A stretch of 64,000 bases of DNA, taken from an uncultured virus (IMG/VR IMGVR_UViG_3300023174_000161). Its lineage: Duplodnaviria > Heunggongvirae > Uroviricota > Caudoviricetes. Position 1 is the first letter of the stretch. The number at the start of each line of letters is the position of its first letter. The notes below the pieces were generated by a model, which had not been told where the DNA came from, did not search any database, and saw only the letters and a list, made by a program, of their open reading frames with translations. The DNA is taken from the IMG/VR virus record IMGVR_UViG_3300023174_000161; one strand, given 5' to 3'. A program made the position numbers and the translations under genes. Of this stretch, positions 3,070-62,319 are shown piece after piece.

Positions 3070-3328
3070 AGCTGTAAAAGTCGACGAAACAATCACCAAA
3101 TGGGACGGATATGCCTTGTTTGACAAGGATTATGTCCTCTTGAACAGCGAGTTGTTTTATGACCTCGACACCGCCAAACAGCGGACCGAGTGTTATGAGA
3201 AGGATTCCTGTGACGTTTGGAAGGTTGTGCTTGAACGCAAGTCCGTTGTGGGCGATGAGCCTACCGAACCTCGCGCCAAGCGAACCCCGAAGAAAATTGA
3301 ACTTGAACTTGTAAAAGGAGAAATATGA
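3062..3328 (+). CDS. hypothetical protein
   Basis: overlaps both neighbours. Confidence 0.6.
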   Translation: MSEAVKVDETITKWDGYALFDKDYVLLNSELFYDLDTAKQRTECYEKDSCDVWKVVLERKSVVGDEPTEPRAKRTPKKIELELVKGEI

Positions 3329-5673
3329 TTATTACCGCAAGCAGAAACCAAGCTGTATCCAGCGGTGTTTCCGAGGTGGTCGATTATAAGATCGACGCAT
3401 CCAACCTCGGCCATATCGCAAGTATCTTGCGTAAAGCCTACTCTGACCCGATCAGAGCGGTTGTGCGCGAGTATGGCACCAATGCGTGTGAGGCTCACAT
3501 CCTCAACGGAAACCAAAAGAAACCGTTTGAAGTGACGCTTCCCACTGGAATGAACCCTAAGTTCACTATCCGAGACTTCGGCCCTGGCCTTGGCGTGGAC
3601 AGATTCAAGAATCTGTTCTGCTCCTACGGCGGGTCGGACAAGCGGGCCAGCAACGAATTCACGGGTTGTCTTGGCATTGGTTGCAAGAGTTATGGTGCCT
3701 ACACCGACTCCTGCACCGTGACCGATCACAACTCTGGAACCAAGCGAATCTGGAATTGTTACATCGACGAGACCGAGGTTGGCAAAGCTTCGCTGCTAAG
3801 CGAGGTCAAGTCCACCGAAGTTTCTGGCGTTGAATTGACCTTCCCCATCCGCCCGTCGGATGTGGAGCGGTTCAGACGCACGGCTATCCAGGTGTATCGC
3901 GTCTTTGACGTCAAGCCGACGATCAAGAACATCACTAAGGAAGAACGCGAGGAACTGGACAAGGCCGAATACAAGGAAGGTTCTGTCAAAGGTGACAGCT
4001 GGGTCTTCCGCGGCGATGGCACCAGTTGGCTCCAGATGGGGCTTGTGCTTTATCCGCTCAGGTCCGACTTCTCTGGCAACGAGTCGATACGCAAACTGAT
4101 CAACGCTGGCATCTACCTTCGGGTCGATGTTGGTGACGTTCAGATTGCGCCATCCCGTGAGGACTTGCAGTATTCGCAAAAGACAATCCAAGGATTGTCC
4201 AAGCATATGCTTCCAATCTTCAACGCTCTTGGTGACAGTCTGGTTAAGAGCGTGGAGAGTGCGGGCAACTTCTATGAGGCGCATCGTTTGCTCTACAAGT
4301 TTGCTAGGACTGGCAACTACAGTTCCTCGGACTTCAGGGAGACGATTGTCAAGAAGATGAAAGGCAAACTGAAATGGCAGGGTCTTGACTTGTTCACGGA
4401 TTACGAACTCCCGCTGGCAACCAATAGCAAAAATGCCAAGGGTGACATCACGCAATCCGCGCACGACAAGCTGTCCAGTCACGGCGTGTCTTTGCTTCGC
4501 ATGAGTAAGCGAAACTGGGGTCGCAACAAGTTTGTTGTTGACCGCGAGACAACCGAGTTGATTGCCAGCAGTGAGTGCAAACTCCTGATCAACGAGGGCA
4601 AGGTAGTCGGCTCTGGTGAGGCCAGAGTTCGCTATTGGCTGACTGATGGCGGTGGGCCGAAAGACTCCACCATCATCGTTCTGTCGTGCAAGAACGGAGG
4701 CAAACAGTTCCTTGAAACTTCGCTGCCTTGGTTTAAGCACGTTCCGTTTGAGTCGATCGAGAACCTACCCAAGGTTCCGCCAAAGAGCAAAGCGGTCGAC
4801 GAGAATGGCGACGAGGTTGAATACACCAAGGATATCAAGCACGGCAAAGGCAATGTGTTTGGTTTGATGTCTGAGTATAGGCATCAAGACAAGCGCAGTA
4901 GTCATTGGGGAATCGCGCCAGCGCCAACGACTGGCAAGAAAGTCTTTGTAGTGCTCGATCAATTCAAGTGGATGATGCCTGGAAAGAAGTTTCAGTATGA
5001 AGAGTACCTTCAGCTGTATCGGGCAAAAGATTACTTGAAGGCAATCGGGTATTGTAGTCAAATCTACGGCGTGAAACAAGCCGATGTCGAAAAGAAAACC
5101 GACGCGACTTGGACTATGCTACACGAAGCAATCGAGTGTGGGACAAGAACCTTCTTGAAGGATAACCCCGACAAGGCCCAGAAGATTGCCGATCGTCTTG
5201 CAGCGATTAGTTACTTCAGCGATAGTCGTGGTATCTATAGAACTGATCGGTTCAAAGAGAAAGGCTGCTTCTTTGAGCAATCCACTCTTTTCCGATGGGT
5301 TGGCGAAAAGACTGGCAAGTTGGATGAAGTTAACTCCGACAGCCCATTCCGAATCTTCATGGAAAAGATTATGGAAATGCTTGGCGGAAAAACTGAGATA
5401 AATGATAAAAAGCTACCAGCATGGCTCGACGAACCTACAAGTTCTTGGGCTCTTGGTAGATCTGATTGTGAGGATAAGAATGGTGTGTATCGACAACTCA
5501 AAGCGTCGTTACCCAAACCTTCTTATGATCTGAAAACTGAAGGAACCAAAATCGCTTCGCGTTATCCATTGTTCTGTGGCCAAGGAAAGTGGCAGACAGA
5601 CGTAATGGGGTACGCAATAGAAGGCACTGTCGAGTATGTGCATCTTGTAGATGCAGCTCGCAAAACAAAATAA
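3325..5673 (+). CDS. rIIA: rIIA-like protein with N-terminal GHKL (HATPase_c) domain
   Basis: YSDPIRAVVREYGTNACEA, IRDFGPGL, YGGSDK, GCLGIGCKS GHKL motifs; immediately upstream of rIIB. Confidence 0.85.
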   Translation: MIITASRNQAVSSGVSEVVDYKIDASNLGHIASILRKAYSDPIRAVVREYGTNACEAHILNGNQKKPFEVTLPTGMNPKFTIRDFGPGLGVDRFKNLFCSYGGSDKRASNEFTGCLGIGCKSYGAYTDSCTVTDHNSGTKRIWNCYIDETEVGKASLLSEVKSTEVSGVELTFPIRPSDVERFRRTAIQVYRVFDVKPTIKNITKEEREELDKAEYKEGSVKGDSWVFRGDGTSWLQMGLVLYPLRSDFSGNESIRKLINAGIYLRVDVGDVQIAPSREDLQYSQKTIQGLSKHMLPIFNALGDSLVKSVESAGNFYEAHRLLYKFARTGNYSSSDFRETIVKKMKGKLKWQGLDLFTDYELPLATNSKNAKGDITQSAHDKLSSHGVSLLRMSKRNWGRNKFVVDRETTELIASSECKLLINEGKVVGSGEARVRYWLTDGGGPKDSTIIVLSCKNGGKQFLETSLPWFKHVPFESIENLPKVPPKSKAVDENGDEVEYTKDIKHGKGNVFGLMSEYRHQDKRSSHWGIAPAPTTGKKVFVVLDQFKWMMPGKKFQYEEYLQLYRAKDYLKAIGYCSQIYGVKQADVEKKTDATWTMLHEAIECGTRTFLKDNPDKAQKIADRLAAISYFSDSRGIYRTDRFKEKGCFFEQSTLFRWVGEKTGKLDEVNSDSPFRIFMEKIMEMLGGKTEINDKKLPAWLDEPTSSWALGRSDCEDKNGVYRQLKASLPKPSYDLKTEGTKIASRYPLFCGQGKWQTDVMGYAIEGTVEYVHLVDAARKTK

Positions 5674-5694
5674 AAACGAAAGGACACAATAAGT

Positions 5695-6552
5695 ATGAAC
5701 TATAACATCACTGACGAAAGTATAACAACGGTGATCGACGGACAGGCGTATACGCTTCGCCGCGATCACGCCAACGCAAAGCTTGTGATCGAGGCCATCG
5801 TTCGCAAGGCGCCCGAAAGCGAAATCCGTGACCTCATGGATATCGCCAAGGCAGTCAACGCATATCTCGGCGACCATGTCGAAGTGCGTGACGGCTCGGT
5901 CTGGCACCGAGGCGAGCCTGTAGATGAATGCATCTCGGGTCGCATCCTTGCGTTTATGACGGAAGGTTTGCCCGTGGAACCGCTCACCAAGTTCCTTGAG
6001 AACCTCTACAACAATCCGAGCCACAACAGTCGCTCGCAGTTGTATAGCTTCCTGGAACACAAGAACATGCCAATCACTGACGATGGCTGTTTCTTGGCGT
6101 ACAAATCGGTCGACTCCAACTACATGGACCACCACACTGGAAAGTTCTCCAATCGTGTTGGCCAGGTGTTGAGCATCCCACGCCGTAACGTGGACGACAA
6201 TCCCGAGAATGGTTGCTCGTATGGCTTCCATGCTGGCTCGCTGGATTACGCAAGCGGATTTGGCGGTAGCGATCGCAAGGTCGTGATTGTCAAGATCAAT
6301 CCAGCTGACGTGGTCTCGGTACCCAACGACTGCGAGTTCCAGAAACTTCGCACCGCTCGGTACGAGGTCGTGGCCAACTACACTGGCCCGTTGCCAGACA
6401 CGTACGCAAACACGTACGACGGCACTGACAACGACGACATCTACAACGAGGAAGATGTCGAATCGGAGGAAAGCAACGGAGACGAGAGTCTTGTTACCGC
6501 AGTTCGTGAAGCCGCCAATCGGCTTCTCAACGCGGTTGCTGGACGTAACTAA
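5695..6552 (+). CDS. rIIB: rIIB-like protein
   Basis: FLENLYNNPS...LYSFLE...PITDDGCFLAYKSV...CSYGFHAG...KINPADVVSVP..KLRTARYEVV. Confidence 0.88.
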   Translation: MNYNITDESITTVIDGQAYTLRRDHANAKLVIEAIVRKAPESEIRDLMDIAKAVNAYLGDHVEVRDGSVWHRGEPVDECISGRILAFMTEGLPVEPLTKFLENLYNNPSHNSRSQLYSFLEHKNMPITDDGCFLAYKSVDSNYMDHHTGKFSNRVGQVLSIPRRNVDDNPENGCSYGFHAGSLDYASGFGGSDRKVVIVKINPADVVSVPNDCEFQKLRTARYEVVANYTGPLPDTYANTYDGTDNDDIYNEEDVESEESNGDESLVTAVREAANRLLNAVAGRN

Positions 6553-6602: not shown

Positions 6603-6761
6603 ATGAAAGTTAAATACATGAACACAGAAAAACTGGCTAAGACCCTTGAGCACCTCAAGTCGTCTTATCCAAAAACCGAAGAACGACAGGCGAAAGGCGA
6701 CGAATCCGCTAGCCTATACGCCCGTCACATTGCCGAGGAATTGGCAAGGAGGACAAAATGA
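6603..6761 (+). CDS. small hypothetical protein not in ORF track
   Basis: GAAAGGA RBS, open frame ATGA-coupled to 6758 ORF. Confidence 0.5.
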   Translation: MKVKYMNTEKLAKTLEHLKSSYPKTEERQAKGDESASLYARHIAEELARRTK

Positions 6762-7033
6762 TGGAAGCAATCTACACAAAAAAGCAAGCTAAAGACATTG
6801 CTGGCACCAAGTATCCTTATGGATTGGGCTGGCATGTGGACGAAGTCAAGGCAATCGAATCCTTGAAGCTTCGAGGCGGAGATGCCTCGACTCTGTTGCC
6901 CGAGTGGTGTGAAGCCACAGGCACGGACAAGGAAGGTAACCTTGTTCGCAAACAACGGTTCGAGGGCAAGAAACCTTGGGACCAGAAACAAGTCGACAAA
7001 AAGATCTACACCCGTGACCTCAAAATTGCTTAA
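6758..7033 (+). CDS. hypothetical protein
   Basis: AAGGAGG RBS. Confidence 0.6.
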   Translation: MMEAIYTKKQAKDIAGTKYPYGLGWHVDEVKAIESLKLRGGDASTLLPEWCEATGTDKEGNLVRKQRFEGKKPWDQKQVDKKIYTRDLKIA

Positions 7034-7856
7034 GTTTAACAGGGGTAACGCCAAGCTTGGCAGGGATATCTGGACGTTCAGTCTACCCGCAGGTTATGCC
7101 TGTCCAGGTGCGCTGGAATGTTTGTCCAAAGCCAATCGCGACACAGGCAAGATTACGGACGGGTCTCAGACCAAGTTCCGTTGTTTCGCCGCGTCCGACG
7201 AGGCTCAGTACAAGAACACCCGCGAACAGCGTTGGCACAACTTTAACCTGTTGAAGAACAAGTCAACGGCCGAGATGTCCGAACTGATTCAGGCAAGTCT
7301 ACCAAGGCAAGCTGGCATCATTCGGGTTCATGTGTCTGGCGACTTCTTCAACCAGTTCTACTTCGATGCATGGATGCATGTGGCCAGATGCCAACCACTG
7401 CGCACGTTCTATGCCTATACCAAGAGCCTTCCGTTCTGGGTCAGGCGTATCGGGGATATCCCCAAGAACTTCGCGCTGAACGCCAGTCGAGGTGGTGTCC
7501 ACGACGAGCTTATTCAAAAGCACGATCTGAAATATGCCGAGGTTGTGTTCAGCATCAAGGAAGCCGTGACCAAGAAGTTGGAGATTGACCACGACGACAG
7601 CCATGCCTACAAGTCTGGCAAACCATTCGCGTTGCTTATCCACGGCACACAACCCGCGGGTAGCATGGCCGCAAAGGCTTTGTCGGCCTTACGCAAGCTG
7701 GGCTGGCACGGCTACGGAAAGAAAACAGTGACTGTCATTGCGCTTTGCTTGGCAATGATGGACTGCGTCCCCGACAAGTACTGGCCCGTGTGGGCCAGGC
7801 CGGGGAACGAGAACATATTCTCGAAGATCAAGATCTTCGGAGAGGAGCTAGTATGA
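7014..7856 (+). CDS. GP88-family phage protein (Cys-rich, possibly radical-SAM-like)
   Basis: GNAKL...FSLPAG..CPGA..C...CFAA, IRVHVSGDFF, FYAYTKS; start probably GTG 7014 or TTG 7026. Confidence 0.7.
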   Translation: MTSKLLKFNRGNAKLGRDIWTFSLPAGYACPGALECLSKANRDTGKITDGSQTKFRCFAASDEAQYKNTREQRWHNFNLLKNKSTAEMSELIQASLPRQAGIIRVHVSGDFFNQFYFDAWMHVARCQPLRTFYAYTKSLPFWVRRIGDIPKNFALNASRGGVHDELIQKHDLKYAEVVFSIKEAVTKKLEIDHDDSHAYKSGKPFALLIHGTQPAGSMAAKALSALRKLGWHGYGKKTVTVIALCLAMMDCVPDKYWPVWARPGNENIFSKIKIFGEELV

Positions 7857-8071
7857 GTTTGATTAACAAGGCATCGGTTAAACGTAGCGCACTGGACATG
7901 GCGAGTGCCAAGTTCAAGGAGCGAAACAAGACAAGACTTGAGATGGGCATTGCCCCCTTAAAGGCTCCACCTTCCCGCGTGAGCGGAGAGTTCGTGGAGA
8001 ACTTTGAGGCTCGAGTCATCGGCATATTAACATCAATGGTCAATGACCATAAGACAGGAGCGACACTATGA
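7853..8071 (+). CDS. putative histone-fold protein
   Basis: GAGGAG RBS; LINKASVKR...RVSGEFVENFEARVIGILTSMV..H..GATL resembles alpha1-L1-alpha2-L2 of prokaryotic histones. Confidence 0.5.
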   Translation: MSLINKASVKRSALDMASAKFKERNKTRLEMGIAPLKAPPSRVSGEFVENFEARVIGILTSMVNDHKTGATL

Positions 8072-8292
8072 ATTGTTATTGTATTACAAAACCTGAGGAA
8101 CAAAAGTTCCTTTCAATCAGTGAGGAGTGGGTGGATTTTGAAACGGGTATCCGTCAAGATTCCATTCGAGGCTACACCAACGAAGAGATGGAGACGTTAA
8201 ACCTAGATGCAAAGAAGCATGGAGGCGAGGTGCGTCAGCATCCTTCTCCCGACGGCATCACGGTTCCATTGTTTTATGACTGGAGTATCTGA
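8068..8292 (+). CDS. hypothetical protein
   Basis: AGGAG RBS, ATGA coupling. Confidence 0.6.
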   Translation: MNCYCITKPEEQKFLSISEEWVDFETGIRQDSIRGYTNEEMETLNLDAKKHGGEVRQHPSPDGITVPLFYDWSI

Positions 8293-8914
8293 GGTATTCG
8301 CGGGTCTCAAAGCCCGCGAGGTTGACCGCTACGTCAATTACTGGGACCGCATTAAACCGCAGTCCCGTGAGGACGAGTGGCGTTTTTGGATATTCTCCAT
8401 TCTTGCAGCCAACTTCGGTTGGAAGCAGAACGTCAAAGCGTTTAACGCAATCAAGGACCGCGGCAAATGGAAGTCCGATCTTGGCAAGCTACAGTTCGAA
8501 CTGTACCAAACCAAGACTGGCCTGTGGCGTACCAAGGCAGTGAGTATCTGGAAGTTTGATCAAATGTATTGGGCCAAGCCCCATATGTTTGAGCGTTATC
8601 CAGGTGAGCCATTGATGCAGTACCGCGACAGGGTGGCCGACTTCTGCCCAGGTCTGGCGATTGCCAAATCAAGTTTCTTTGTGGAGATGAAGTATCACGA
8701 CGAGTCAGACGTGGTTTGTCTTGACCGTCGGGTGCTGAAGTCCATCCATAAGAAAGCAAGAAGCGTGAATCGTTCCGACTATCTCCTCTTGGAGGATGAA
8801 TGGAGGGATTGTTCCCGCGCTTACCAGATTCCCGCGGCCACTGCGCGGTTCATCTGGTGGGATAAACTACAAGGCTATAAGAATAGCCGATACTGGAGTG
8901 AGGTATTAGAATGA
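8276..8914 (+). CDS. HhH DNA glycosylase-like protein (Ogg2 / N-glycosylase-lyase type)
   Basis: FSILAANF, PGLAIAKSSFF, VVCLDRRVL, NRSDYLLLE parallel archaeal Ogg FCILTANF, KGIGYKEASHF, AIIDRHIL, SRRKYLEIE. Confidence 0.7.
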   Translation: MTGVSEVFAGLKAREVDRYVNYWDRIKPQSREDEWRFWIFSILAANFGWKQNVKAFNAIKDRGKWKSDLGKLQFELYQTKTGLWRTKAVSIWKFDQMYWAKPHMFERYPGEPLMQYRDRVADFCPGLAIAKSSFFVEMKYHDESDVVCLDRRVLKSIHKKARSVNRSDYLLLEDEWRDCSRAYQIPAATARFIWWDKLQGYKNSRYWSEVLE

Positions 8915-11960: not shown

Positions 11961-12104
11961 TTATTTCCCTAATCCTCTCTTAGCTCTAGCTTGAAAAACT
12001 TTTTTGCCTAGTTTCTTACGGCCAATCCACGCAGCCAAAGCTTTAGGATCATCCGCCCCTTTGGCGGATAGACTTTTTACAAGTTTGGCGTAGCCCATCT
12101 TCAT
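11961..12104 (-). CDS. 47-aa very basic protein not in ORF track
   Basis: MKMGYAKLVKSLSAKGADDPKALAAWIGRKKLGKKVFQARAKRGLGK; fills gap exactly. Confidence 0.7.
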   Translation of the reverse strand: MKMGYAKLVKSLSAKGADDPKALAAWIGRKKLGKKVFQARAKRGLGK

Positions 12105-12105
12105 G

Positions 12106-12261
12106 TTATTTGTTTTTAGATTTTCCGGCAGCGCTCAAGGCAATAGCAATAATCTGAGCTCGGCTACGGCTTTTGCCTCCAGCTCCACGCTCTTTGCCTT
12201 TCTTCTTATTGTCAGCATAGAGTTCGCTGATGTTGGCTGATACGTTTTTTCCTAATGGCAT
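12106..12261 (-). CDS. 51-aa very basic protein not in ORF track
   Basis: AAGGAG RBS; MPLGKNVSANISELYADNKKK...QIIAIALSAAGKSKNK. Confidence 0.7.
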   Translation of the reverse strand: MPLGKNVSANISELYADNKKKGKERGAGGKSRSRAQIIAIALSAAGKSKNK

Positions 12262-12272
12262 ATAGTTCTCCT

Positions 12273-12698
12273 TTATACTTGTTCTTCTACTGCCTCTACA
12301 AAACTTTTATTTTTATTTTCTTTTGAGTCATCTAGTGGGCCACCAACAATCCAGGCTTTGCAAGTACGCTTTGACGCGCACTTAAAATCAAAAGCTTCGC
12401 AGTATCCAAGGTCCCCGGCATCAATGGTAGCCCATTCATCTCCCTGGTCTTTTCCAAGTCCTTGGGCAATACAGTTTTTGATTCGGGTTGTGACGTTGAA
12501 AGCAGCACAGTTTCCACACCTGGATTTCTTAGCTTCTTCGGGTGAGGTGTTGAACTCTTGCCCGAGTTTAGTCCAGTAGTCTTCATTAGGTTCGTTGGGG
12601 TTCATTGGCCCGTACATTGCCGTCTGTATAGCTTTCTTTCTATTGCGTAAATTAGCTGCAATATCTTGTGTCTCAACAGGGCAGGCTTTAACAGGCAT
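12273..12698 (-). CDS. Cys-rich phage protein (HiPIP-like pattern)
   Basis: CGNCAAF...GYCEAFDFKCASKRTCKAW. Confidence 0.7.
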   Translation of the reverse strand: MPVKACPVETQDIAANLRNRKKAIQTAMYGPMNPNEPNEDYWTKLGQEFNTSPEEAKKSRCGNCAAFNVTTRIKNCIAQGLGKDQGDEWATIDAGDLGYCEAFDFKCASKRTCKAWIVGGPLDDSKENKNKSFVEAVEEQV

Positions 12699-12708
12699 AA
12701 CTTTTAGT

Positions 12709-12918
12709 TTACTTGGACTCCTCTAGATCGTCAACACCATCTTCATCTTTATCCCGAAAAGAACTAGGGTCTCTAGTAAAAATTTTCTTTGCTAACATAT
12801 AGCGTTCTTCAGCAGTCATTTCCGTCCAGACTTCCGTCTTACCCCTTGGTTTCCAAGCAATTAGAGCTATAACAATAAAAGCAAAAAAGAATACCGGCCA
12901 AAGGCTCAGCAACTCCAC
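12709..12918 (-). CDS. small membrane protein with DxDxDG tail
   Basis: N-terminal TM; DKDEDGVDD. Confidence 0.55.
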   Translation of the reverse strand: MELLSLWPVFFFAFIVIALIAWKPRGKTEVWTEMTAEERYMLAKKIFTRDPSSFRDKDEDGVDDLEESK

Positions 12919-13172
12919 AAAACCTTTCTGGCCCAGTAGTTGGCCGAGAGTTTTCCATCGCCTCCCTTAATCCCACCTGATCTGGCGCAATAACTTTTAC
13001 GTCTCTTCTGACTGTGGTGCTGTGTGTAATCCTTCATTGAACTATCTCCAAAATGAATGAGCTTTTCTTGCCCACCCGAACAAGCTTTGACAACCTTCTT
13101 CTTGCCCGGTCTCCACGACTTACGTGGTTGATTACAGGGCATGTCAGCTTTGCTGGATTTGCCTAAAGGCAT
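12906..13172 (-). CDS. small basic phage protein
   Basis: KLIHFGD...RRKSYCARS...SANYWARKVLW pattern recalled from phage hypotheticals. Confidence 0.7.
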   Translation of the reverse strand: MPLGKSSKADMPCNQPRKSWRPGKKKVVKACSGGQEKLIHFGDSSMKDYTQHHSQKRRKSYCARSGGIKGGDGKLSANYWARKVLWSC

Positions 13173-13733: not shown

Positions 13734-16700
13734 TTACTTTCTTTCTGGAAACAAGATACCTTCTTGATTTTTTTCAAGGAGGACTTGATATAGAACGGCC
13801 TTCTTGACGGGGTTAACAATCATCGGAACGATTGTCATAAACTCTGCTCGGGTCATCTTTTCCAGTTGGGGAATCCTGGCTCCAAGCTGCTGCTGGATGA
13901 TGGGGCCGGCGCGTTGCATCCATTCATACTTCTCGTCGGTTGTTAGTTCGCGTCTTAGCTGGAAGAAATCGTCATAGGTAATAGGTTCTTTATTAGCTTC
14001 TTTCTGGGCAATCAGTTCCTGCATGGCAAAGTCCTTGAGGGTGCCCGCGTCCCAGCTTAGCGAGAATCGATTGCTAGCAAACATGGATATCAGTTTGTCG
14101 TGGACAGCTTGCGGAGTCCGCTTGCCCTCGTCGTAGCTCACCGAATCAACACCCGAAGTAGTGAGTCGGCGGACAAACGGAACGGTATTCGCTAGTTGCG
14201 TTCTTACGTTACCGCCAAGGAAATCTAGATCGGGCTTTCCTACCTTTGAAGCAAAAGGAACCGATAGGGCAAAGGTTGACAGGAAATTATTTTGATACGG
14301 CCTAGCGCTAGGTGCTCCGGTAAATCCGTTCCATACTTGTTCGATGTCGCGCAACGTGGCGTAGCCTGGGATAAGACCACCGACTACATTGCCAAATGTC
14401 TTAGTCAAGTTGGTCATAATTCCTTTGGCATCTTTCGTTCCGGGTCCAGGGGATGTAAGCGACATGATCTGTCGGATACCAGAGAGAGCGGCCATGTCCA
14501 TAATTCCGTACATCGCCAACGCCCCACCCGTAATCGCACCGTTGAGGATAGCTTCTGACTTGGAACGTTTGTCGTATCGCACTGATTCTGCGATTGCTCC
14601 TGCAAGGATCAGAGGCCCGGAAATACCAACGGGGAAACCTTCAAAGCTGAAGAACTGAGGTGATCCATCTTTGAATCGTCCCACTTGGATAGAGCGAAGC
14701 TTTCCGCCGGCAGCAAAGAAAGCTTCACGCTGGGCTGGATCATTAGGTCCTTTGAAGTGAATCATGAAGTAGGGATCGTCCTCGCCACTCATAGCTTCCT
14801 TGAGGCCGTAGATCAAAGCCCCGGTAAGGATGTATCCAAGCGTCATCTTTCCTACGAGAAGATCATGTTCTACCGTTCCGGGAACGGCTGGAGGACGATA
14901 GTATTTAGTGTCCTTCAGCATAGCCGCTGATCCGCGATACAACCGAACAGTGGAGGTTACTGGCATAAAGTTAAGAACTTCATTGGCCAAACTAGATCCG
15001 GTCTTCAAGAACTTAATGACTAACCGCAAAGGCCAAGCCTTGGAGGACATCGCTGTCAGGCCATCGGCGAGCAGACCAAACCAACCTTCAAAATTATTTG
15101 TATAAGTAGATTGAGCTGCAAACGTTTTAGCTTTTTCAGCTAGATTCTTTACCTCTTCTTCGTCCGGCCTTCCTTGTTCTAGAATTTCTTCGACTCTCAA
15201 GGATTCCTGATCGGGCGTGAGATTAAATTCTTCAGCTTCAGCTGCTGCCTTAGCTTCCGCCCTAACGCGAGCCTCAGGAGATTGGTTCAACAACCGAGCA
15301 ACTTCTAGCTCAATCTCTTCCTGACTCTTTAATCCTTTTTCAATAGCAATATTTGTTGCCTCCGCAATTTCATACATCTTCTTGGATGAAATTTTATTTA
15401 TGGCGTCACCAGCTGCCATAGAACGACCGAAGAAAATGAAGGGCGCCAAAGCTCCATACTTACTGCTGATGAATTTGGAGTCTAGTGGGATACGATATTC
15501 TTGACCAAGTATATTGACTGGAAGTTCAGGTTTTACAGCTCCAGGTTTCTTTGCCCGATAAGCTTCAGCCTGAGATACAATAGCCTCCCAAATGTTTACG
15601 CCACCAAGTTCCTGCGTTAGAGCGTCCTGAACCGCTGAGTAATCTCCCTTGAAAAAGATATTAGCAGCCGCTTTGAGGGCAGGCTTTTCTCCAATCAAAA
15701 TTGCAGAGTTCAAAGCTTTGGCAGCGTCAATATAAGCTTTAGATCTAGCCTTATCTCCAACCATTCCCTTTACAAACCCCATACTCCCAAGGATTGCTGC
15801 GTTTAGTTCATTGCTTGCCGTAGCTGACCAAGCATTGATCCCAATAGTTCCAATACCTGCAAGTAAGTTAGACGTTTGATAATTAACAAGTAGCTCGCCC
15901 CATACTTGTGGAGATACCAATTTGATATACTGGTACATCTCAGAAATTTTTCTATTGCGGATCATTCCCACTGGGTACAGCGGAAGATCTTCGATCATCT
16001 TGTTAAGCTTGTTGCGCTCGGCTCCGGTAAGCTCGGGCAATCCAAGCTGAGACCGCATCTGCATAAACACTTCGCTGTCGGTCAACACGCCAAGATTTGT
16101 CGCCTCGATAAGTTTGTCCAGGGCAGAACGCATCTTACGAGTCTTACGTTCTTTTTTCTTCTCAAATTTTTTCTTTATGTTTTCAAGTTCTTTTTTTCTC
16201 TCTTCGGCGATAAGTTCGGTCATGCCGTCGCGAAGGAAGTCGAGAACTTCTTTCTTTTGAGCTTCGTCAAGATTAGTATTCTGGGTAAGCAAAGCCCCCA
16301 TCTTATTTTCAAAGTCCATGATGTCGCCACGGCTGGAACGGATGAGGCTACGGATATTTGTCTGTGGGCCTCCAATAGATTCCAACGAACGGACGGCTTG
16401 CTTTAAGCTGGACACGGCAAAGGGTCGGCCAAAAGCTTCCTCAATGAAAGGCTCAAGCCCAATCAACTCTTCTTCCTTGTAGTTGTTGCGGAGCGAATTG
16501 CGCACATTACTAATGAACTCCTGAACGTTGGGATACTTGGCGATACGATCCTTCAAAACTTCGGCTTCTGTCGGCTTGGGTTCTGGCTCAAACGCGGGCT
16601 GCAATCCGCCCATTTCCTTTGTGCGCTGAGCAATCAATCTGCGGATACGGGCTGCAAATTCTTCGAGGGCATCCTTTACTTTGGGCTCTTGCTGGAGACG

Positions 16701-19700
16701 AGCGGCTTGTTTCTGGAGAGCATCTGCCGAGGCTTCAGCCAACTCCGCCAACTTAGACGGAGCATCCGACGGAATTATTACCGGTGCTTCTTGCGCCGCT
16801 TTTGCTTTTGCTTGCGTGGCTCGTTGGATTGCTTCACCTCGTGTGGCGGGGGGAGCGACAACTTCGCCAGCCTCGCCACCTTGCGCACCAGCCTCTCTCG
16901 CCCTTGCTGCCCGTAGCGCTTTAGCTCCGTATGATTCGAGTGCGTATGTGAGGGAAGCGTCAAAATAAAGTTCGACCTTTCGTCTAACGTTATCTTGGTT
17001 CTTTGCGTCACGCAAGGCCGGAACCAACATTACTAACCGTTTGATCTCATCGGCAGAAGCGGCAGTCTCGCGGGGGTTTTCAGAACGTTGAATAAGCTCG
17101 AGAATAATACGGCCAAGCGCTCGAGTCTGTTTGGGATCGAGGCGAATGTCGTCTGCCTCTCCTCCGCCAACTTCGGGTGCGGCCGTAAGATCGGCTCCGA
17201 GGAACTCAACTCCATCCTTATTGGCATCTTCGCTGGCAAGATAATCGGCGAGCACGGCCTGAATCTGTGATACAGTCCCGCCCTTTTTATTTAGATCAAC
17301 AAGTTTTCCAAGCTGATCAAGGGTCTTTTGCATCTTTTTGCTGGTTGTTAATTTGTCCGCAGCTCGACGGCTAGCATCCGTCAATCCAGATGCAATTTCA
17401 TTTTCCTCCGATTTGTAAGCCACAAGGCGCCCTTTGATTGCGCTATCAATTTGTTTCCCGACATACATCTTCATGGCTTCTGAATTGGTGGACAATTCTC
17501 CGAGAGCGTTCCATAGATCTACGGTACGTCCTGGATCAGTCCCATATTTTTTGCTTAGCAAAAGCATAACGTCGGCCAACTGTTCGCGCGCAAATCTATC
17601 GGTCTTAGCTTTTTCACCTAGACCCTTGGCCAACTCAAATCCGATTGCGCCCTGTAAAGGAAGCGAAGATTTAATATTCCCGCCCAAGAAGGCATTGAGT
17701 GTATTATCAAATCCGTAAGTGCCGATGTATTGACGGGCATCCTCAAACTGCTGTTCGCGAGGGACGGACATATAATACCAAGCATCGAGTAACTTATCCT
17801 TAGTCTTTCCTTCTGGAAGTGAATCCGCAAATTTAGTTACAATATTTTTTACAGCTTGGCTTTCACGAATCTCGGGTGCGGGAGCCGCTACCAAACGACG
17901 AGCATAGTTGTCGTATCCAGCCCTACCGATAGCTGCAATCAAAGCACCTCGATTATTGTAAGTATAAGTCTTACCATCAAAAATAATTTCATTGCGATCT
18001 TCAAACATTTTGGCGACGGTATTTGCCACAGCTCCGGCGGATGTTTTGGCGCTGGTAGGATATGACGGATAGAACCCAATCTTTACGTTGTACTTTCCAT
18101 ACTCGGAAGGTTCAGTCAAATTCACTGGCTCAGTCGTGGCCACAAAAGCTGCAACTGGCAACGACTCACCCGACTCTTCCATACCTTCCGCAATCTCAAG
18201 GGCTTTGTTGGCGATACCTGGAAGGCTTGCTCGGCCACCATCCATGACGGACTTAGTCGCGGCCCTGAACAAATTGCGCTCTTGATTCGTGATTATTCCG
18301 CGACGAGCTGCAACATCCAAGCCGTCGAGCCAATCGTTCACATCAACTGTTTTGAACAGGTCGTCAGCCGCGGTGACTCCAAATACGCCATCCGTTCGGC
18401 CTTCAAGATGGTTCTCAATCATGCGATAGATTCGAAGATCGTAGGAGTCAAACTTGTTCGAGGGGCGAGGAGACGTTGGAGAGCGACCAGGTTCTGGTGC
18501 CGGAACGGGTCCAGGTTTTGATTCATCCATGAAATACTTGGAAGTCTTTCTAAGATTAGAAATGGAATCTTCGATGCTTTGACGCATTGCCAAGCGATCC
18601 GTGGCTTGAGGGGCAAGACCTAATCCACGCTTGACTACGGTAGCCATGCTGTCAAACCACACTCCGAGTCTGGCGAGAACGGATTTTGGTTCTTGTCCTA
18701 TTAAATCTTTCAACCGGTTTGTAGCCCTGGCTACATCTTTCGGATTAACGGATGTAAATTGTTGTGTGATTCCTCCGGTAAGAGCATTTTCTGTAAGCAG
18801 TTCAATTCCTTCCGCTGTTACCTGATATGGATCATTTGCCATAGCAAGTATTTTTCCTTGGACACCACTATCAGTAATATCTGACCCTTCGGAAGAATAA
18901 TAGGTTCTTGCAATACCAAGTCGTGTCGCCTGACTCATTCCTTCTCCAATCGCAGTCAGTTCTTCAACTGGGTCAAGCCCCATTTCTCTATAGTATCTAA
19001 AAGTTTCTACGTGTATTGTTTCATGCAATAAAACTCTAGTTAAATAAGATTTAAAATCTTTTGCTGATATCCGAGATTTACCGACAGCCAGTTTTTCGGG
19101 GTTGATAATAATTGTGTCAGATTCATTATCGGTTCCAGGCTGAGCGGCAACGCTATGCTCTGCCGTAGGAGATACTAAAACATTATAAGTACGAGGCTGA
19201 CCTTTTGCGTCTTTAAAGGTAACCGTATTGTCTTTGTAGTTAGCTCCAAGAACGGAAGTTAGTTCCGTGTCTACAAACTTTTGTTGTTCGGCGGTCGCTT
19301 CGTTTGTTTCCTTGACGGGAGCCACAACTTCTTCAGCCCTAAGACCTTCAAATCCCGCTCCGACGGTTGCGTCAAGCAATCGCAATTTGGCTCGCATACG
19401 GCCGATGGTATTCTGATCAATCTCGGCCTGAGACTCCAAGAACACAATGCTGGGACGGCTGGCGCTGTCCACGCGCCAGACGCGGTAGATAAGCTGGACC
19501 GCCTGGATTGCACTGATCGGCGGAGACAGAATGATCATCTCCCGTGACTCGTCACCGAACTTGTCATCCAATTCGATTCCGGTTCCGCCCATTTCCTTAG
19601 TGGCAATCAGAACATCGGCCTCACCTTCATTAAAGGAAGCCATTGCTTGTTCCTTGGTCTGCTCTGAACCAGTGTACATCCGGGCGATCTTGAGAGTCGG

Positions 19701-22700
19701 ATCAAGCTTGGCGATTGCGGCTTCGAGTGACGCGGAAGTAGGATTAACTGTCTCGCCTTTGGAGTTTTCATCCGAAACAAATCCAACATAGAGGACGGGT
19801 TTCTTGCCACGCTTGATGGCATCTACTGCTCGTTTAGCGGCTGCGTCAACTTTATATTCTTCAAGCGCACGTTTCTGAGCTGCTGCCATTTTCCGCAAAG
19901 CCGAGATGTCCACGTTTTGTGTTCCACCATACATCGCCTTGATGTCCTCAAGCTGTTGCTTGATCTGGTTGTCGAGAGGAACATCTTGGAACTCTACATC
20001 TACTCCATCCAGTCTAAGTGAACGAGAGCGCATGATTCCGTTCTTCGCCATTCCGTCGAGGTAAGTTTCCAACCGATCCTGCATCTGGGTCTCGGTAACT
20101 CCTTCGGCCAACTGCCAATAGTATTTCTTTCCACCGCGAAGAGAATATTTTTGGAATCCAAGGCGGCTGAACAAAGCTTCGGGGGATTCATTGTCAAAGA
20201 TTCCAAGTCGACCAAGGGACAACAATTGGTCCGGAGTTTCGAACGGAGTGCCCGAAGCCATCAATGTGCGACCGGCTTTGTTGGCGATATCGTCCATCAA
20301 TATTGCCCACGACCGGGTCTTTCCTCCTTGAATAGCTTTGGATAAGTTACGGCCAGAGTGCTGTTCGTCTAAAAGAACTACAGTCTTGTCATCAATCAAC
20401 GGCAAAAGTTTTTCGAGATATCCTGAATTGTATGTAGTGACTAACATGCGACCCGGAACAAACTCAATTGGCAATCCCTTTCCGTTCTCACCTTTCCCAC
20501 CACGAACCGCCAACGGAACGCCAAGAATCGCTGCATCCTTCTGGATGGATCCTCCAATATCCCCGTAGTCCCAGTTCGGCGTAACGGCGTCAGGAGCTGT
20601 TATGTAAACAACCTTAAATCCTTTGTTGAGATAGTAGGCTCCAGTGCCAAGCAACACTCGCGTCTTTCCAGTTCCAGGTCCGTTCGCCAAGTAGAATGCC
20701 TTGTGCTTAGAGTTCTCGATTGTGGTGACAGCCGCGGCCACATCCTGTGTTTGCTCTTTGGACAGATTGGAAAGAACTTGTTGCCCCGCGGGAGCAAGAA
20801 TCTTTTCGTCGAAAGGTTTGCCTAGCTGGTTACGGGGCTCGACGAAGGACTTGGGGATTGGGGTGCCACGAGGGCGCTCAACTCCAGGTCTCCCGACTCC
20901 GGCTGGCGGACGCTCAGCAGGTCGTCCCATTTCTTTCCGCTCCGCGGGAACGGCTTTTTCAGGAACTCTCTTTGCGGTGGTAGCGCGCTTCGCTTCGAGC
21001 TCGGCGAGCTTTGCGCGAGCTTCCTCACGTCGATCAGCGGGCGTCTTGGCTTCAGGTCTTGGGGTTGGTAGTTGTTCTGGTTGTTCATAAGTTCCTTCCT
21101 CGTTGATGGTTAATCCGCTGTCGCGCAGGATTTGGTCACTGACGCGAAGCAGGTTTGACCGGAAAGCAGCCGCGATTTTGTTCTTGGCTTCTCCTTCCGG
21201 CATGGCTTCCGAAGCCAGATAAGGCTCGGCAAGTTTGTTTAATGTGGCGACATAGGCGTCGGCTTGTTTCTGTGAAATTGTTCCGTCCTCCGTAGATTGC
21301 CGAAGATTGGTATCAATGGCTTCGGTGAGTTCTGTGATGGAATCCGGGGTTAGTTTAGAAGCAGCTACGCTCTCAATAAAGTTATCAAATGATCTAAGTA
21401 AATCGCCCGAGCGGGACGATTGAACTTCGCCAAGCAAAGTCTTGGCGGCGACTAGTTCGGCATCATCAAAGAAATTATCCGCTTGTAACTTGCGGAACCG
21501 GTCAACATAAGGCTTGATCTGGTTGGCGGTAAGGTTACCCTCGCGCACAACTCCGGCTGGTTCTTCAACAGCGCGAACCGGTAGTGTCCCAGCTCGTTGA
21601 CTGTTTCGATAATTGTTTTCCAAGCCCTGAACAAACTTAGTTCTGACCGCGGGTTGAAGAGCGTTGATGTTATCAATTGTTGTTCCTATCTTGGCCGCTT
21701 CCGAAGCCACGTTCTTTACATCGCCAACCACGGCATCAAACGCCAGCTTTTCAGCATCCGTGGCCAAAGAGTTTCGGAAAGGTTGCTTAAAGTTTTCGGC
21801 AAGGATGGCGAGTGCTTCTTGTCGTTGAGCCGCGGAAGGAACTTCGGTTTGACCTTGCGTCTGAAAATCTGTTTCAGTCGCGTCGATCTGGTCGAGTGTC
21901 TCGTTGATTGCGCCGGCGACCGCTGGGTTAAGCCCTTGTTCTTCTGCCAGTGTCTCAGCATCCACAGCCTGAGTCCGAAGCCCGGGAGTTTCCATGCTAA
22001 CCGCCGCGCCAATTCCAACACCAGCCCGCATGCGGGGAACAGCCTGACGGATAAAATCCCGAAGACGGCTATTGAAAATAGTGCTTAAGGAAAGATTGCC
22101 TTTACCTTGACGCAGTTCATACAGGAACGAATTGATTGTTCCGTTTGAAACTTCGTCTGCAATGTTGTACTTCTGGTAGCCAGCCAACGACTTGCTCTGA
22201 AGGTAAGCATTCTTACGTTTGACGTAAGCCATCAAAGTTTCAGCTGGAGTCAGTACATTTCGGTTGTTTTCATCGATCGCGCCAAGACTCTGGAGCAGTT
22301 CAACAGTAGCCGCATTCTTCAAATTGAATACATCGCCCAAAGCATTTACATCATTCTCCCTAGAATCAGGAGCTAGCTTCTGAAACTTCTGATAAGATGC
22401 TTGTTCGGGATTATTGATAGCCAAGACAACATCAGGTCGAGCTTCCAGTTCTGGCGAAATCGCTCCGCTTTTAATTCCTGCATTTGTTTCCCGCTCAAAT
22501 TGCCCTACCAAACTTGCCACACTTTGCTCACCTCGGGTGCCACGCTCCATTTCGCCCTGGCCTTGCATGGCTTGTAACTTAGCAAGTTGTTCTTCGAGGG
22601 CCGGAGTTTCTTCCAAAGGAGATTGCCTAATCTTAATTTGCAAAGCTGCGATCTGGTCAGCAATCTTTTTAGCCTTGAACTCGGCGGGCCTTTCTTGGGC

Positions 22701-24974
22701 AACCAACTCCTGCTGTTGGGCAAGACGAGTTTCCAACGCAGTCTGAATCTCGCTAGGTCCCAGATGCTTTGAAGCAATGGCCTCAATCTCTGGGATTGAT
22801 CCAGCCGCGTCCAATAGATCGCTGATTTCATCAACTTGGTCTTGCGTGATCCCTGGTTTGTTCTCGATCTCTTGCAAGATTGCGTCCTTCTCATCTTGCA
22901 TGATCTCGGATGGATCTTCTTTGCCCAGCCAATTACCCTCGGCATCCTTGACTCCTAAAACCTGATACCGTGACCCGTCTTCACTGAGCTTTCCATAAAC
23001 GCGACCCTGACTTTCAAGCCAGTCAATCTTGGCCTGATTGTTTGGGGTAGAGGAAAGATCAACCGAGGTTCCTCCCTTTTGAAATACATTGACCAATTCG
23101 TTAAGGGCGCCAAGAGCTTCTTCATCAGTCTCGGGAACTCCGGCTTCTATGGTCGGAGGAACTCCCATTTGTGTTCGCGAAAGAATATCGTTAGCTTGCT
23201 GAGGAGTTAGCTTATTGATCTGTTCCTGCGTGTAATTCAATCCGCGCAACTTTTGCTCCATTGCGCGTGTGATCATCAAAGGAACACGAACCGCTCCTTC
23301 TAAATCAACTTGTGCCTGAGCTTCGGAAACCTTTTGCGAAAGCAGGGATTCCACAACCCCCTGCTTTGAATTGTTAATTGCTTCATCAGCCACAGCTGTG
23401 GTTTCGGGAGCCGTTCTTGGATCCAAGGAGGCGCGGACATTAACAGCGTCAAAAAGAGCTTGAGCTTCCGGGCTATTTAAAGATTCCCGAAGATCAACAA
23501 TCTGTTGCATTTTCTGATCTTCCGGAATCCTAGGATCGTTTTTAATTCCAGTAACAGTTTGACGCAAAGTATCTGCAAACTTGTCATTCGCCATTTGATT
23601 AAGTCTTGCTCTACGGCCAACAAATCCTTCGGCCAATACCATGCCAAGACCAATACCACCCGAAGCGGCGAGGCTTTGGGGAATCTGAGCAATGGGATCT
23701 TGCCCGCGGGCAATCGCGTCAATCACATCAGATGAAGTTTCTCCGAGGGTTGTTCCTATGACTTTAGCCGTTCCCTGAACAACCGGAGCAAATGCAGGAA
23801 GTTTGGTCTCAAGAGCTTTTGCAACCATGTGATTGGCTAAGGCATGATCGGCCACATCTTCCAATCGATTACCAGCTTCTTCAGAAAGGGCTAAGATACC
23901 AGCCTCACTCACAATCGAAGCTAACCTTTGTCCCACGCTCAAATTGCGTGGGTCTTGGTCGAGAGATTGGGAAGCTCCAACAACTGCGTAAGTTGCACCC
24001 TTGGACAAAGTCGTGGGAACTTTGATTGTCTGGCCTGCAATGTTTGCCGCTTTCCCAAGGAGACTTGTCGCTCCTGCGCCAACTGCCATGAACTGGCCCA
24101 AAGAACCAGTGGCCAATCCAGCCAAGGTAGATGGCATGTAATCTTTTTGAATTACATCGTTAATTCCATTGGTCAAAGCAGAACGACGAGCAACTTGATC
24201 GGGATTGTTTTCATCAACAATAATATCTCCGATAGAAACGAAAGGAACAAACGCGTCGCCGGATTGAATTGCAAAGTTTCTAAGTCCCGCGGTACCAAGT
24301 TTCTTTGTCTTATCGCTCTGAAGATCCTGATAATATTCCTGGGCTCTTGCCAGGTTCATTCCAACTTTCGGAGTATTCCACGCGCCACGACCAAACTCCA
24401 TTGCGGGAGCTTGATCCTTGGGGGCAATAGATTTCCCTGCTGCTAATTCATCGGAATACAGAGTGCCAAGTTCAAGGGCTTTTGCCGCTTGGGTGGAGTC
24501 TTTGATTGTTCCAATGTAATTGCGGGATGCCAAACTTTCCTGCATAGCTTTGGCGTCTTCATTGGTAATACCCAAACCTGACTGCAAATAAGATCCAATA
24601 ACTTTACCCACACGTCCAACTGCAATTTTGGTAAGGCCCAACCAGTCGTTGTTTTTCTCTGCGTCAAGTTTGGCCTGAGAGGTGGACGTAATGTAATCCT
24701 GTACATTTTTACTGGCATCTTGCCAAGACTGTGCGTTAAGGGGAAGTTTGCCTTCTTTAAAGCGGGTAGCTGTACCAAGTAAAAGATCGTTAGCTTTGGG
24801 GTTATCCCGAAGCTCCATCAGGTGGCTGGCCTGAGCCAACGCGGGTGAAGGTTGACTTAACAGGGAATCAAATTCATCGGGCTGTTGGGCTGGAGCTTGC
24901 CCAAGAATATCCCCGACAATACTGTCGATGCTACTAGGCAAACCAGCATCCAGAGGGGAAAGGGGATCTGCCAT
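13734..24974 (-). CDS. giant polyvalent internal virion protein (sigma-like module, Strawberry-notch-type SF2 helicase, HExxH peptidase)
   Basis: 3746 aa; YLANGPGTGKT, LLDEQH, ASGTP, GGTGIELDD, QLIYRVWR; LLHETIH; follows ejection-protein genes. Confidence 0.8.
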   Translation of the reverse strand: MADPLSPLDAGLPSSIDSIVGDILGQAPAQQPDEFDSLLSQPSPALAQASHLMELRDNPKANDLLLGTATRFKEGKLPLNAQSWQDASKNVQDYITSTSQAKLDAEKNNDWLGLTKIAVGRVGKVIGSYLQSGLGITNEDAKAMQESLASRNYIGTIKDSTQAAKALELGTLYSDELAAGKSIAPKDQAPAMEFGRGAWNTPKVGMNLARAQEYYQDLQSDKTKKLGTAGLRNFAIQSGDAFVPFVSIGDIIVDENNPDQVARRSALTNGINDVIQKDYMPSTLAGLATGSLGQFMAVGAGATSLLGKAANIAGQTIKVPTTLSKGATYAVVGASQSLDQDPRNLSVGQRLASIVSEAGILALSEEAGNRLEDVADHALANHMVAKALETKLPAFAPVVQGTAKVIGTTLGETSSDVIDAIARGQDPIAQIPQSLAASGGIGLGMVLAEGFVGRRARLNQMANDKFADTLRQTVTGIKNDPRIPEDQKMQQIVDLRESLNSPEAQALFDAVNVRASLDPRTAPETTAVADEAINNSKQGVVESLLSQKVSEAQAQVDLEGAVRVPLMITRAMEQKLRGLNYTQEQINKLTPQQANDILSRTQMGVPPTIEAGVPETDEEALGALNELVNVFQKGGTSVDLSSTPNNQAKIDWLESQGRVYGKLSEDGSRYQVLGVKDAEGNWLGKEDPSEIMQDEKDAILQEIENKPGITQDQVDEISDLLDAAGSIPEIEAIASKHLGPSEIQTALETRLAQQQELVAQERPAEFKAKKIADQIAALQIKIRQSPLEETPALEEQLAKLQAMQGQGEMERGTRGEQSVASLVGQFERETNAGIKSGAISPELEARPDVVLAINNPEQASYQKFQKLAPDSRENDVNALGDVFNLKNAATVELLQSLGAIDENNRNVLTPAETLMAYVKRKNAYLQSKSLAGYQKYNIADEVSNGTINSFLYELRQGKGNLSLSTIFNSRLRDFIRQAVPRMRAGVGIGAAVSMETPGLRTQAVDAETLAEEQGLNPAVAGAINETLDQIDATETDFQTQGQTEVPSAAQRQEALAILAENFKQPFRNSLATDAEKLAFDAVVGDVKNVASEAAKIGTTIDNINALQPAVRTKFVQGLENNYRNSQRAGTLPVRAVEEPAGVVREGNLTANQIKPYVDRFRKLQADNFFDDAELVAAKTLLGEVQSSRSGDLLRSFDNFIESVAASKLTPDSITELTEAIDTNLRQSTEDGTISQKQADAYVATLNKLAEPYLASEAMPEGEAKNKIAAAFRSNLLRVSDQILRDSGLTINEEGTYEQPEQLPTPRPEAKTPADRREEARAKLAELEAKRATTAKRVPEKAVPAERKEMGRPAERPPAGVGRPGVERPRGTPIPKSFVEPRNQLGKPFDEKILAPAGQQVLSNLSKEQTQDVAAAVTTIENSKHKAFYLANGPGTGKTRVLLGTGAYYLNKGFKVVYITAPDAVTPNWDYGDIGGSIQKDAAILGVPLAVRGGKGENGKGLPIEFVPGRMLVTTYNSGYLEKLLPLIDDKTVVLLDEQHSGRNLSKAIQGGKTRSWAILMDDIANKAGRTLMASGTPFETPDQLLSLGRLGIFDNESPEALFSRLGFQKYSLRGGKKYYWQLAEGVTETQMQDRLETYLDGMAKNGIMRSRSLRLDGVDVEFQDVPLDNQIKQQLEDIKAMYGGTQNVDISALRKMAAAQKRALEEYKVDAAAKRAVDAIKRGKKPVLYVGFVSDENSKGETVNPTSASLEAAIAKLDPTLKIARMYTGSEQTKEQAMASFNEGEADVLIATKEMGGTGIELDDKFGDESREMIILSPPISAIQAVQLIYRVWRVDSASRPSIVFLESQAEIDQNTIGRMRAKLRLLDATVGAGFEGLRAEEVVAPVKETNEATAEQQKFVDTELTSVLGANYKDNTVTFKDAKGQPRTYNVLVSPTAEHSVAAQPGTDNESDTIIINPEKLAVGKSRISAKDFKSYLTRVLLHETIHVETFRYYREMGLDPVEELTAIGEGMSQATRLGIARTYYSSEGSDITDSGVQGKILAMANDPYQVTAEGIELLTENALTGGITQQFTSVNPKDVARATNRLKDLIGQEPKSVLARLGVWFDSMATVVKRGLGLAPQATDRLAMRQSIEDSISNLRKTSKYFMDESKPGPVPAPEPGRSPTSPRPSNKFDSYDLRIYRMIENHLEGRTDGVFGVTAADDLFKTVDVNDWLDGLDVAARRGIITNQERNLFRAATKSVMDGGRASLPGIANKALEIAEGMEESGESLPVAAFVATTEPVNLTEPSEYGKYNVKIGFYPSYPTSAKTSAGAVANTVAKMFEDRNEIIFDGKTYTYNNRGALIAAIGRAGYDNYARRLVAAPAPEIRESQAVKNIVTKFADSLPEGKTKDKLLDAWYYMSVPREQQFEDARQYIGTYGFDNTLNAFLGGNIKSSLPLQGAIGFELAKGLGEKAKTDRFAREQLADVMLLLSKKYGTDPGRTVDLWNALGELSTNSEAMKMYVGKQIDSAIKGRLVAYKSEENEIASGLTDASRRAADKLTTSKKMQKTLDQLGKLVDLNKKGGTVSQIQAVLADYLASEDANKDGVEFLGADLTAAPEVGGGEADDIRLDPKQTRALGRIILELIQRSENPRETAASADEIKRLVMLVPALRDAKNQDNVRRKVELYFDASLTYALESYGAKALRAARAREAGAQGGEAGEVVAPPATRGEAIQRATQAKAKAAQEAPVIIPSDAPSKLAELAEASADALQKQAARLQQEPKVKDALEEFAARIRRLIAQRTKEMGGLQPAFEPEPKPTEAEVLKDRIAKYPNVQEFISNVRNSLRNNYKEEELIGLEPFIEEAFGRPFAVSSLKQAVRSLESIGGPQTNIRSLIRSSRGDIMDFENKMGALLTQNTNLDEAQKKEVLDFLRDGMTELIAEERKKELENIKKKFEKKKERKTRKMRSALDKLIEATNLGVLTDSEVFMQMRSQLGLPELTGAERNKLNKMIEDLPLYPVGMIRNRKISEMYQYIKLVSPQVWGELLVNYQTSNLLAGIGTIGINAWSATASNELNAAILGSMGFVKGMVGDKARSKAYIDAAKALNSAILIGEKPALKAAANIFFKGDYSAVQDALTQELGGVNIWEAIVSQAEAYRAKKPGAVKPELPVNILGQEYRIPLDSKFISSKYGALAPFIFFGRSMAAGDAINKISSKKMYEIAEATNIAIEKGLKSQEEIELEVARLLNQSPEARVRAEAKAAAEAEEFNLTPDQESLRVEEILEQGRPDEEEVKNLAEKAKTFAAQSTYTNNFEGWFGLLADGLTAMSSKAWPLRLVIKFLKTGSSLANEVLNFMPVTSTVRLYRGSAAMLKDTKYYRPPAVPGTVEHDLLVGKMTLGYILTGALIYGLKEAMSGEDDPYFMIHFKGPNDPAQREAFFAAGGKLRSIQVGRFKDGSPQFFSFEGFPVGISGPLILAGAIAESVRYDKRSKSEAILNGAITGGALAMYGIMDMAALSGIRQIMSLTSPGPGTKDAKGIMTNLTKTFGNVVGGLIPGYATLRDIEQVWNGFTGAPSARPYQNNFLSTFALSVPFASKVGKPDLDFLGGNVRTQLANTVPFVRRLTTSGVDSVSYDEGKRTPQAVHDKLISMFASNRFSLSWDAGTLKDFAMQELIAQKEANKEPITYDDFFQLRRELTTDEKYEWMQRAGPIIQQQLGARIPQLEKMTRAEFMTIVPMIVNPVKKAVLYQVLLEKNQEGILFPERK

Positions 24975-62277: not shown

Positions 62278-62319
62278 ATGCGTGGTCTCAACCATAGCCG
62301 CCTTTCTTGGGCTGGCCAT

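Follow-up and report, generated by a model that had tools for sequence, protein, structure and literature searches.

The 64,000-nucleotide stretch analysed here (the window), from the uncultured virus IMGVR_UViG_3300023174_000161, encodes in an open reading frame (ORF) at 7853..8071 on the plus strand a protein of 72 amino acids (aa), P0001. As judged from its sequence and predicted structure, this protein is a histone fold of the alpha3 superfamily of HTkC, HLp and HBb, in which the third helix, alpha3, has been lost altogether and a conserved 15-residue arm has been gained. By the same evidence, homology to the histone fold is very likely. The best profile match was HTkC, the face-to-face alpha3 histone of Thermococcus kodakarensis, at E 4.7e-5, and the family profiles overall gave E values from 4.7e-5 to 2e-4. 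The predicted model has the alpha1-L1-alpha2-L2 geometry and superposed on HTkC (PDB 9F2C) at 1.6 Å over 51 residues, the best fold match, first or tied, as well as on HLp (PDB 9QT0) at 1.6 Å over 49 residues and on HBb (PDB 8CMP) at 2.0 Å over 49 residues; these superpositions use a predicted monomer model, not a solved structure, and have low Z. All three end at L2. The minimal histone fold without alpha3 that an earlier note had proposed for this ORF was thus borne out by the profile match, by the superpositions and by the stop codon, which directly follows GxT[LIV] in 100 of the 102 subfamily members. The note had also suggested comparing the fold with HMfB and with Bd0055 (HBb). The second comparison held, as given above, while HMfB, which carries RVS in L1 and RKTI in L2, was absent from the listed matches, the nearest relatives being alpha3-type histones with HTkC first.

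The opposite strand is interrupted by stops in the frame of this ORF. The chain opens with an N-terminal arm and the alpha1 core (residues 1-17; 7853..7903, plus strand like all features of the gene), where K6 and K10 correspond to the HTkC DNA contacts K7 and K11 in a register inferred from end points. The alpha1-like LINKASVKRSAL (residues 3-14), the RVS loop (42-44) and the terminal GATL (69-72, then the stop) were all found in the translation. In the model, alpha1 spans residues 6-30 and alpha2 residues 45-65, with no helix beyond residue 65. A subfamily-specific extension of alpha1 (18-32; 7904..7948), seen in both the model and the subfamily alignment, contains R24, N25, T27, R28, M31 and G32, which are invariant in 102 of 102 members, and the proline-rich return strand of the insert (33-41; 7949..7975) carries the nearly invariant P35, K37 and P40. 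These lead to the L1 motif R42-V43-S44 (7976..7984), equivalent to HTkC R22-V23-S24 in the profile and subfamily alignments, and to the short alpha2 helix (7985..8047), the putative dimer helix, whose last residue, D65, occupies the place of the HTkC tetramer residue R45. The chain closes with L2 (H66-L72; 8048..8071 with the stop), in which T71 is kept, A70 stands in place of the L2 lysine, and neither alpha3 nor an RD clamp follows.

The insert had been described as a basic insertion of about 25 aa. It exists and is moderately basic (6 K/R and 2 D/E at residues 20-39), but its size is about 15 residues when measured against its own short relatives and about 21 against HTkC, and it is predicted mostly as a prolonged alpha1 returning through the proline-rich strand, not as a loop. 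Mean conservation is 0.92 at residues 18-32 versus 0.66 in alpha2, indicating that the insert does something specific. Likewise, the amphipathic helix of about 25 aa is recovered as the predicted alpha2, at 21 residues and with weak amphipathicity, its hydrophobic moment being equalled in 340 of 5000 shuffles. This helix is shorter than in nucleosomal histones and in register with that of HTkC.

HTkC contacts DNA through K7, S8, K9, K11, R22, V23, R51, K52, T53 and Y55, with R22 entering the minor groove (bioRxiv 10.64898/2025.12.06.692711; here and below, published comparisons draw on sections of the cited papers). The residues K6, K10, R42, V43 and T71 of the phage protein correspond to K7, K11, R22, V23 and T53 and are kept in 95-102 of 102 members, in an alignment whose N- and C-terminal register is inferred from end points only; K9, R51, K52 and Y55 have no counterpart, and nothing basic stands at the places of R51 and K52. 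Like HTkC, the phage protein has RVS in L1 and a short alpha2; unlike HTkC, it has about 21 extra residues between alpha1 and L1, and its chain stops at HTkC residue 54, without alpha3. The tetramer arginine R45 is replaced by D/E (96 of 102 members at position 65), and its C-terminal partner residues fall past the stop. When R45 is removed from HTkC, the tetramer becomes an HBb-like bending dimer (bioRxiv 10.64898/2025.12.06.692711).

The last residue of the model also aligns with V58 of HLp, the face-to-face histone of Leptospira perolatii, where the L2 strand pairs with L1 of the partner chain (bioRxiv 10.1101/2025.05.08.652872). Unlike in HLp, however, alpha3, the RD clamp R55-D62, T61 and F63 lie past the phage end or are missing, and the RxTxxxxD motif (RD clamp) of face-to-face histones finds no equivalent, as no Arg precedes T71 and the chain ends at L72. 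What defines alpha3 histones is an alpha3 truncated to 3-4 residues (PMC11390915), whereas in the phage protein this helix is wholly absent. In HBb (Bd0055), the Bdellovibrio bacteriovorus histone, the tetramer residues are missing, and the protein is a DNA-bending dimer (PMC11390915; bioRxiv 10.1101/2025.05.08.652872; bioRxiv 10.64898/2025.12.06.692711). The face-to-face tetramer residues are missing in the phage protein too, and by this analogy HBb is its best working analogue. Yet HBb retains a one-turn alpha3 and the RD clamp (bioRxiv 10.1101/2025.05.08.652872) and has no insert, the opposite of the phage protein, and our sequence and profile searches gave no sequence-level match to it. 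Unlike HMfB-type archaeal nucleosomal histones, the phage protein has neither a full-length alpha2 nor the dimer-stacking 10-residue alpha3 (PMC11390915). Because every named group has a defining feature that it does not share, we placed it in none of them, though it would work most like HBb.

The gene recurs across one phage lineage and is under purifying selection. Among 105 candidates, 104 proteins (query included) matched at E<=0.01, most of them exactly 72 aa long and none with a Pfam domain, and identity to the window protein was 71-88% across all 24 viral loci. Selection was assessed computationally, as the fold was, in 24 gene copies, one from the window and 23 from the 24 loci (L024, with an incomplete match, was excluded). 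The variable sites numbered 37/17/66 by codon position, and synonymous sites were near saturation (median pS 0.72 vs pN 0.12); of 274 pairs, the 167 that were unsaturated gave a median dN/dS of 0.07. In a sample of the 21 longest of 78 loci chosen by terminase alone, 12 carried the gene, including 11 of the 11 that were at least 90% complete; the nine without it are fragments that also lack rIIB. The gene is therefore a core gene of one lineage, whose genomes are related and do not represent many independent cases. In four of the five genomes tested, the histone-like protein was more conserved than terminase (61-70%) and than a putative capsid protein so labelled by us, with no family match (44-66%); in the fifth and nearest genome, terminase was 98% identical and the histone-like protein 76%. 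Among 50,697 records, the terminase matched no cultured phage.

Insert-free relatives form a wider short family. When 1.84 billion representatives were searched with a profile, 15 matched at E<=0.001, including insert-free proteins of 57-64 aa, forms with other inserts, and P0117 (411 aa), which we rejected as spurious. With a profile of nine short forms, 1,366 of 2,274 candidates matched at E<=0.001; no Pfam domain was found in the best 120, the ones inspected, and some of the 1,366 may be ordinary alpha3 histones. The insert subfamily and the short family are linked by hhalign (98.9%, E 1.3e-17), and of the 1,124 six-frame pieces into which the window was cut, the short-family hidden Markov model selected only the histone-like ORF (E 4e-10). 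At most one further residue follows GxT[LIV] in 91 of 101 short members. Short forms were located on 20 viral contigs (records of 4.8 to 354 kb) and two genome contigs, and, in the Atlas clusters nearest a short member, 88-90% of the few members that have a record were viral. A short form adjoins the GP88 gene in two phages whose terminase is 62% identical, which means that both forms exist within the lineage of the window.

Several relatives carry insertions of their own. The 73-aa proteins P0108, P0146, P0149 and P0150 combine a similar insert (RNxxRxEMG) with a core placed separately in the tree, possibly through recombination or a second origin. Other, unrelated inserts occur at the alpha1/L1 junction in P0111, P0147, P0148, P0110 and P0113, and a long insert lies within alpha2 in P0114 and L041:4001-4303. 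The fold thus appears to tolerate repeated insertions. In the related phages L042 (3983-4884), L043 and L044 (terminase 62% in the two tested), the short form is placed immediately upstream of GP88, so that the gene order is opposite to that of the window. One short form (L045:7968-10332) comes from a contig of an Acidoferrum metagenome-assembled genome, where RadC-like, ParB-like and serine-recombinase ORFs give its surroundings, by eye, the look of a mobile element.

Covariation bears on the question of a dimer. The top covarying pair in 101 short members, 35-47 (z 4.0-5.5 at three redundancy cut-offs), lies on a single straight helix and combines opposite charges in 48 of 71 rows and like charges in none, which 0 of 5000 permutations reached; it is followed by 39-46 and then by pairs linking alpha1 to late alpha2. 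The pattern suggests what an antiparallel dimer would give. A kinship check left two independent pairs (p 0.5) for 35-47, so that the covariation is inseparable from kinship, and in the insert subfamily the equivalent pair (50/62) is uncharged. The phage protein probably forms a homodimer, and DNA binding, as judged by residue conservation and charge, is fairly likely.

On balance we lean towards a homodimer that would bind the DNA backbone without sequence preference and bend it, place a basic finger by each L1/L2 site, and serve the phage's own DNA within infected cells. The alpha2 helices of two copies would cross in a head-to-tail arrangement that pairs L1 of each chain with L2 of its partner, and contact with the backbone would be made by K6 and K10 at the alpha1 N-termini and by R42, V43 and T71 at the L1/L2 sites. 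As alpha3 and the tetramer arginine are absent, the protein would be expected to remain a dimer and to bend DNA, as HBb or HTkC R45A does, instead of wrapping it. The lengthened alpha1 and the proline-rich strand could form the basic finger, extending the DNA footprint or docking a partner. The weakest step is the proposed role, that of an architectural protein which acts inside the cell, during infection, on the phage's own DNA, a target that we infer.

Alternatively, the histone fold might be mainly a dimer scaffold carrying an insert that binds another protein, of host or phage, such as a factor in transcription, repair or defence, with DNA binding weak or lost. We consider this unlikely, while recognising that the better conservation of residues 18-32 than of alpha2 speaks for it and that the conserved insert residues include F21, N25, T27, M31, G32 and P35, not the basic ones alone. 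In addition, the L2 lysine is lost, the net charge is below that of the short family, and TAF histone folds, which are protein scaffolds, score equal to true histones in the fold search. The HTkC-type DNA-contact residues, however, are almost invariant, and no single neighbour gene is common to all 24 loci as a dedicated partner, the rII genes being upstream in most.

We assign a low probability to a takeover factor acting on the host chromosome, which would coat or remodel the nucleoid, or would form pairs with a putative alpha3 histone of the host and, having no alpha3 itself, block its assembly. The gene's neighbours are indeed small and non-structural, on the strand that carries the replication genes, HLp alters nucleoid shape when expressed in E. 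coli (bioRxiv 10.1101/2025.05.08.652872), alpha3 histones occur in some PVC-group phyla (PMC11390915), and one relative is on a contig binned as Verrucomicrobia. That label, however, is weak, coming from one bin on a 5-kb contig, and members of the family turn up in unrelated phages and on the mobile-element-like contig as well. It is very unlikely that the protein is packaged in the virion core to condense or shield DNA on entry: small, basic, core and highly conserved as it is, and although giant-virus histones make nucleosome-like structures (PMC13681535), its gene lies in the rIIA/rIIB region, opposite in strand to the structural block and distant from it. That the likeness of a two-helix protein to histones arose by chance or convergence is highly improbable, since sequence profile and structure search independently place HTkC first or tied first and, as a lead only (score 0.86), a short member connects to an Atlas cluster in which 47% of the proteins carry PF00808.

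Phage histones of a broadly similar kind have been published before, and the alpha3-less form with an insert is a new variant of them. Schwab et al. (PMC11390915) define alpha3 histones and a group of 'phage histones' with a C-terminal helix, and Liu et al. (PMC13681535) describe 539 Caudoviricetes histone-fold proteins in seven clusters, among them VTTHFP, VHHHFP, VFFHFP, BBVHFP and VKHFP; the bench tests in the sections drawn on here deal only with eukaryote-like histones. The present protein resembles these groups in being a phage-encoded, computer-predicted fold of alpha3 type; it shares the lack of RxTxxxD with the 'phage histones', and by eye the short family shares the G-x-K-T-L end of L2 with the VTTHFP rows. 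By contrast, 'phage histones' and VTTHFP carry a C-terminal tetramerisation helix, and all VKHFP, VHHHFP and VTTHFP rows examined run past L2, where the phage family ends. The sections of PMC13681535 and PMC11390915 concerned describe no L1 insert, and five family motifs were absent from three alignments of PMC13681535, in which gaps could hide them. From the histone-fold table of that paper, 11 contig identifiers (from 6 of 24 insert loci and 5 of 20 short loci) were absent while a control identifier was found; from its histone table 12 were absent, with no control included. No alpha3-less prokaryotic or phage histone was found in the literature searched, which covers subscription journals thinly.

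The window, from a freshwater bacterial virus, is by its recognised genes (terminase, DNA polymerase, helicase, rIIA and rIIB) most of one tailed-phage genome; the longest contig known to carry the histone-like protein is 71 kb. The gene sits in a plus-strand block of small genes past the rIIA and rIIB homologues (3325..6552) and a GP88-family gene (6882..7856; Pfam PF17338), a common but not fixed neighbour. It shares its strand with the replication genes, and the structural genes are on the other strand. ATGA overlaps join its start to the GP88 stop and its stop to the next start, and a possible ribosome-binding AGGAG (7843-7847; with the ATGA overlap, 7843..7856) lies within the GP88 coding sequence, 5 nt 5' of the start, so that the two genes may be translationally coupled. 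As listed, the GP88 ORF shares 152 bases with a 91-aa ORF at 6758-7033; its Pfam match begins at residue 51, which puts the true start probably near 7030. The gene in the corresponding position of L014, L015, L016 and L021 shares only 25-27% identity, suggesting replacement by a distant homologue. Downstream, an Ogg-HhH (8-oxoguanine) DNA-glycosylase-like gene (8207..8914, plus strand; Pfam E 1.7e-6) follows; 17 of 24 related loci have this gene close to the histone-like one.

Elsewhere in the window, a 464-aa probable major capsid protein without a PHROG match is encoded at 44450-45844 on the minus strand. The structural block also includes a 3,746-aa protein (13734-24974, minus), probably a polyvalent or ejected protein, in which part of a superfamily 2 helicase and an HExxH motif were seen by eye. 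At the end of this block (11961-13172, minus), several tiny basic ORFs (47-141 aa) lie beside a glucosaminidase, one of them matching phrog_220 (minor head/DNA pilot). A protease-like gene at 62278-63246 on the plus strand matches phrog_9683 (E 7.5e-14) and looks by eye like a trypsin/PDZ protein (HtrA-like).

Tentatively, the two-helix alpha1-L1-alpha2-L2 unit may be a working minimal histone, with which many related bacterial viruses, a large family that published histone surveys would have missed, would build a chromatin-like coat on their own DNA in the host, organising replication or shielding the DNA from host nucleases; in the lineage of the window, the conserved insert would add a new DNA- or partner-binding finger. 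The short family looks large, with its 1,366 matches (best 120 inspected) against the 539 viral histone-fold proteins of PMC13681535. The 58-aa form and the 72-aa form with the insert offer a natural experimental pair in one phage lineage, and the small size of the protein makes the role of phage histones in infection easy to test. If the protein dimerises and binds DNA, the histone fold works without any third helix, as the end point of the alpha3-truncation series, and tailed phages would use an alpha3-less histone as a conserved core gene.
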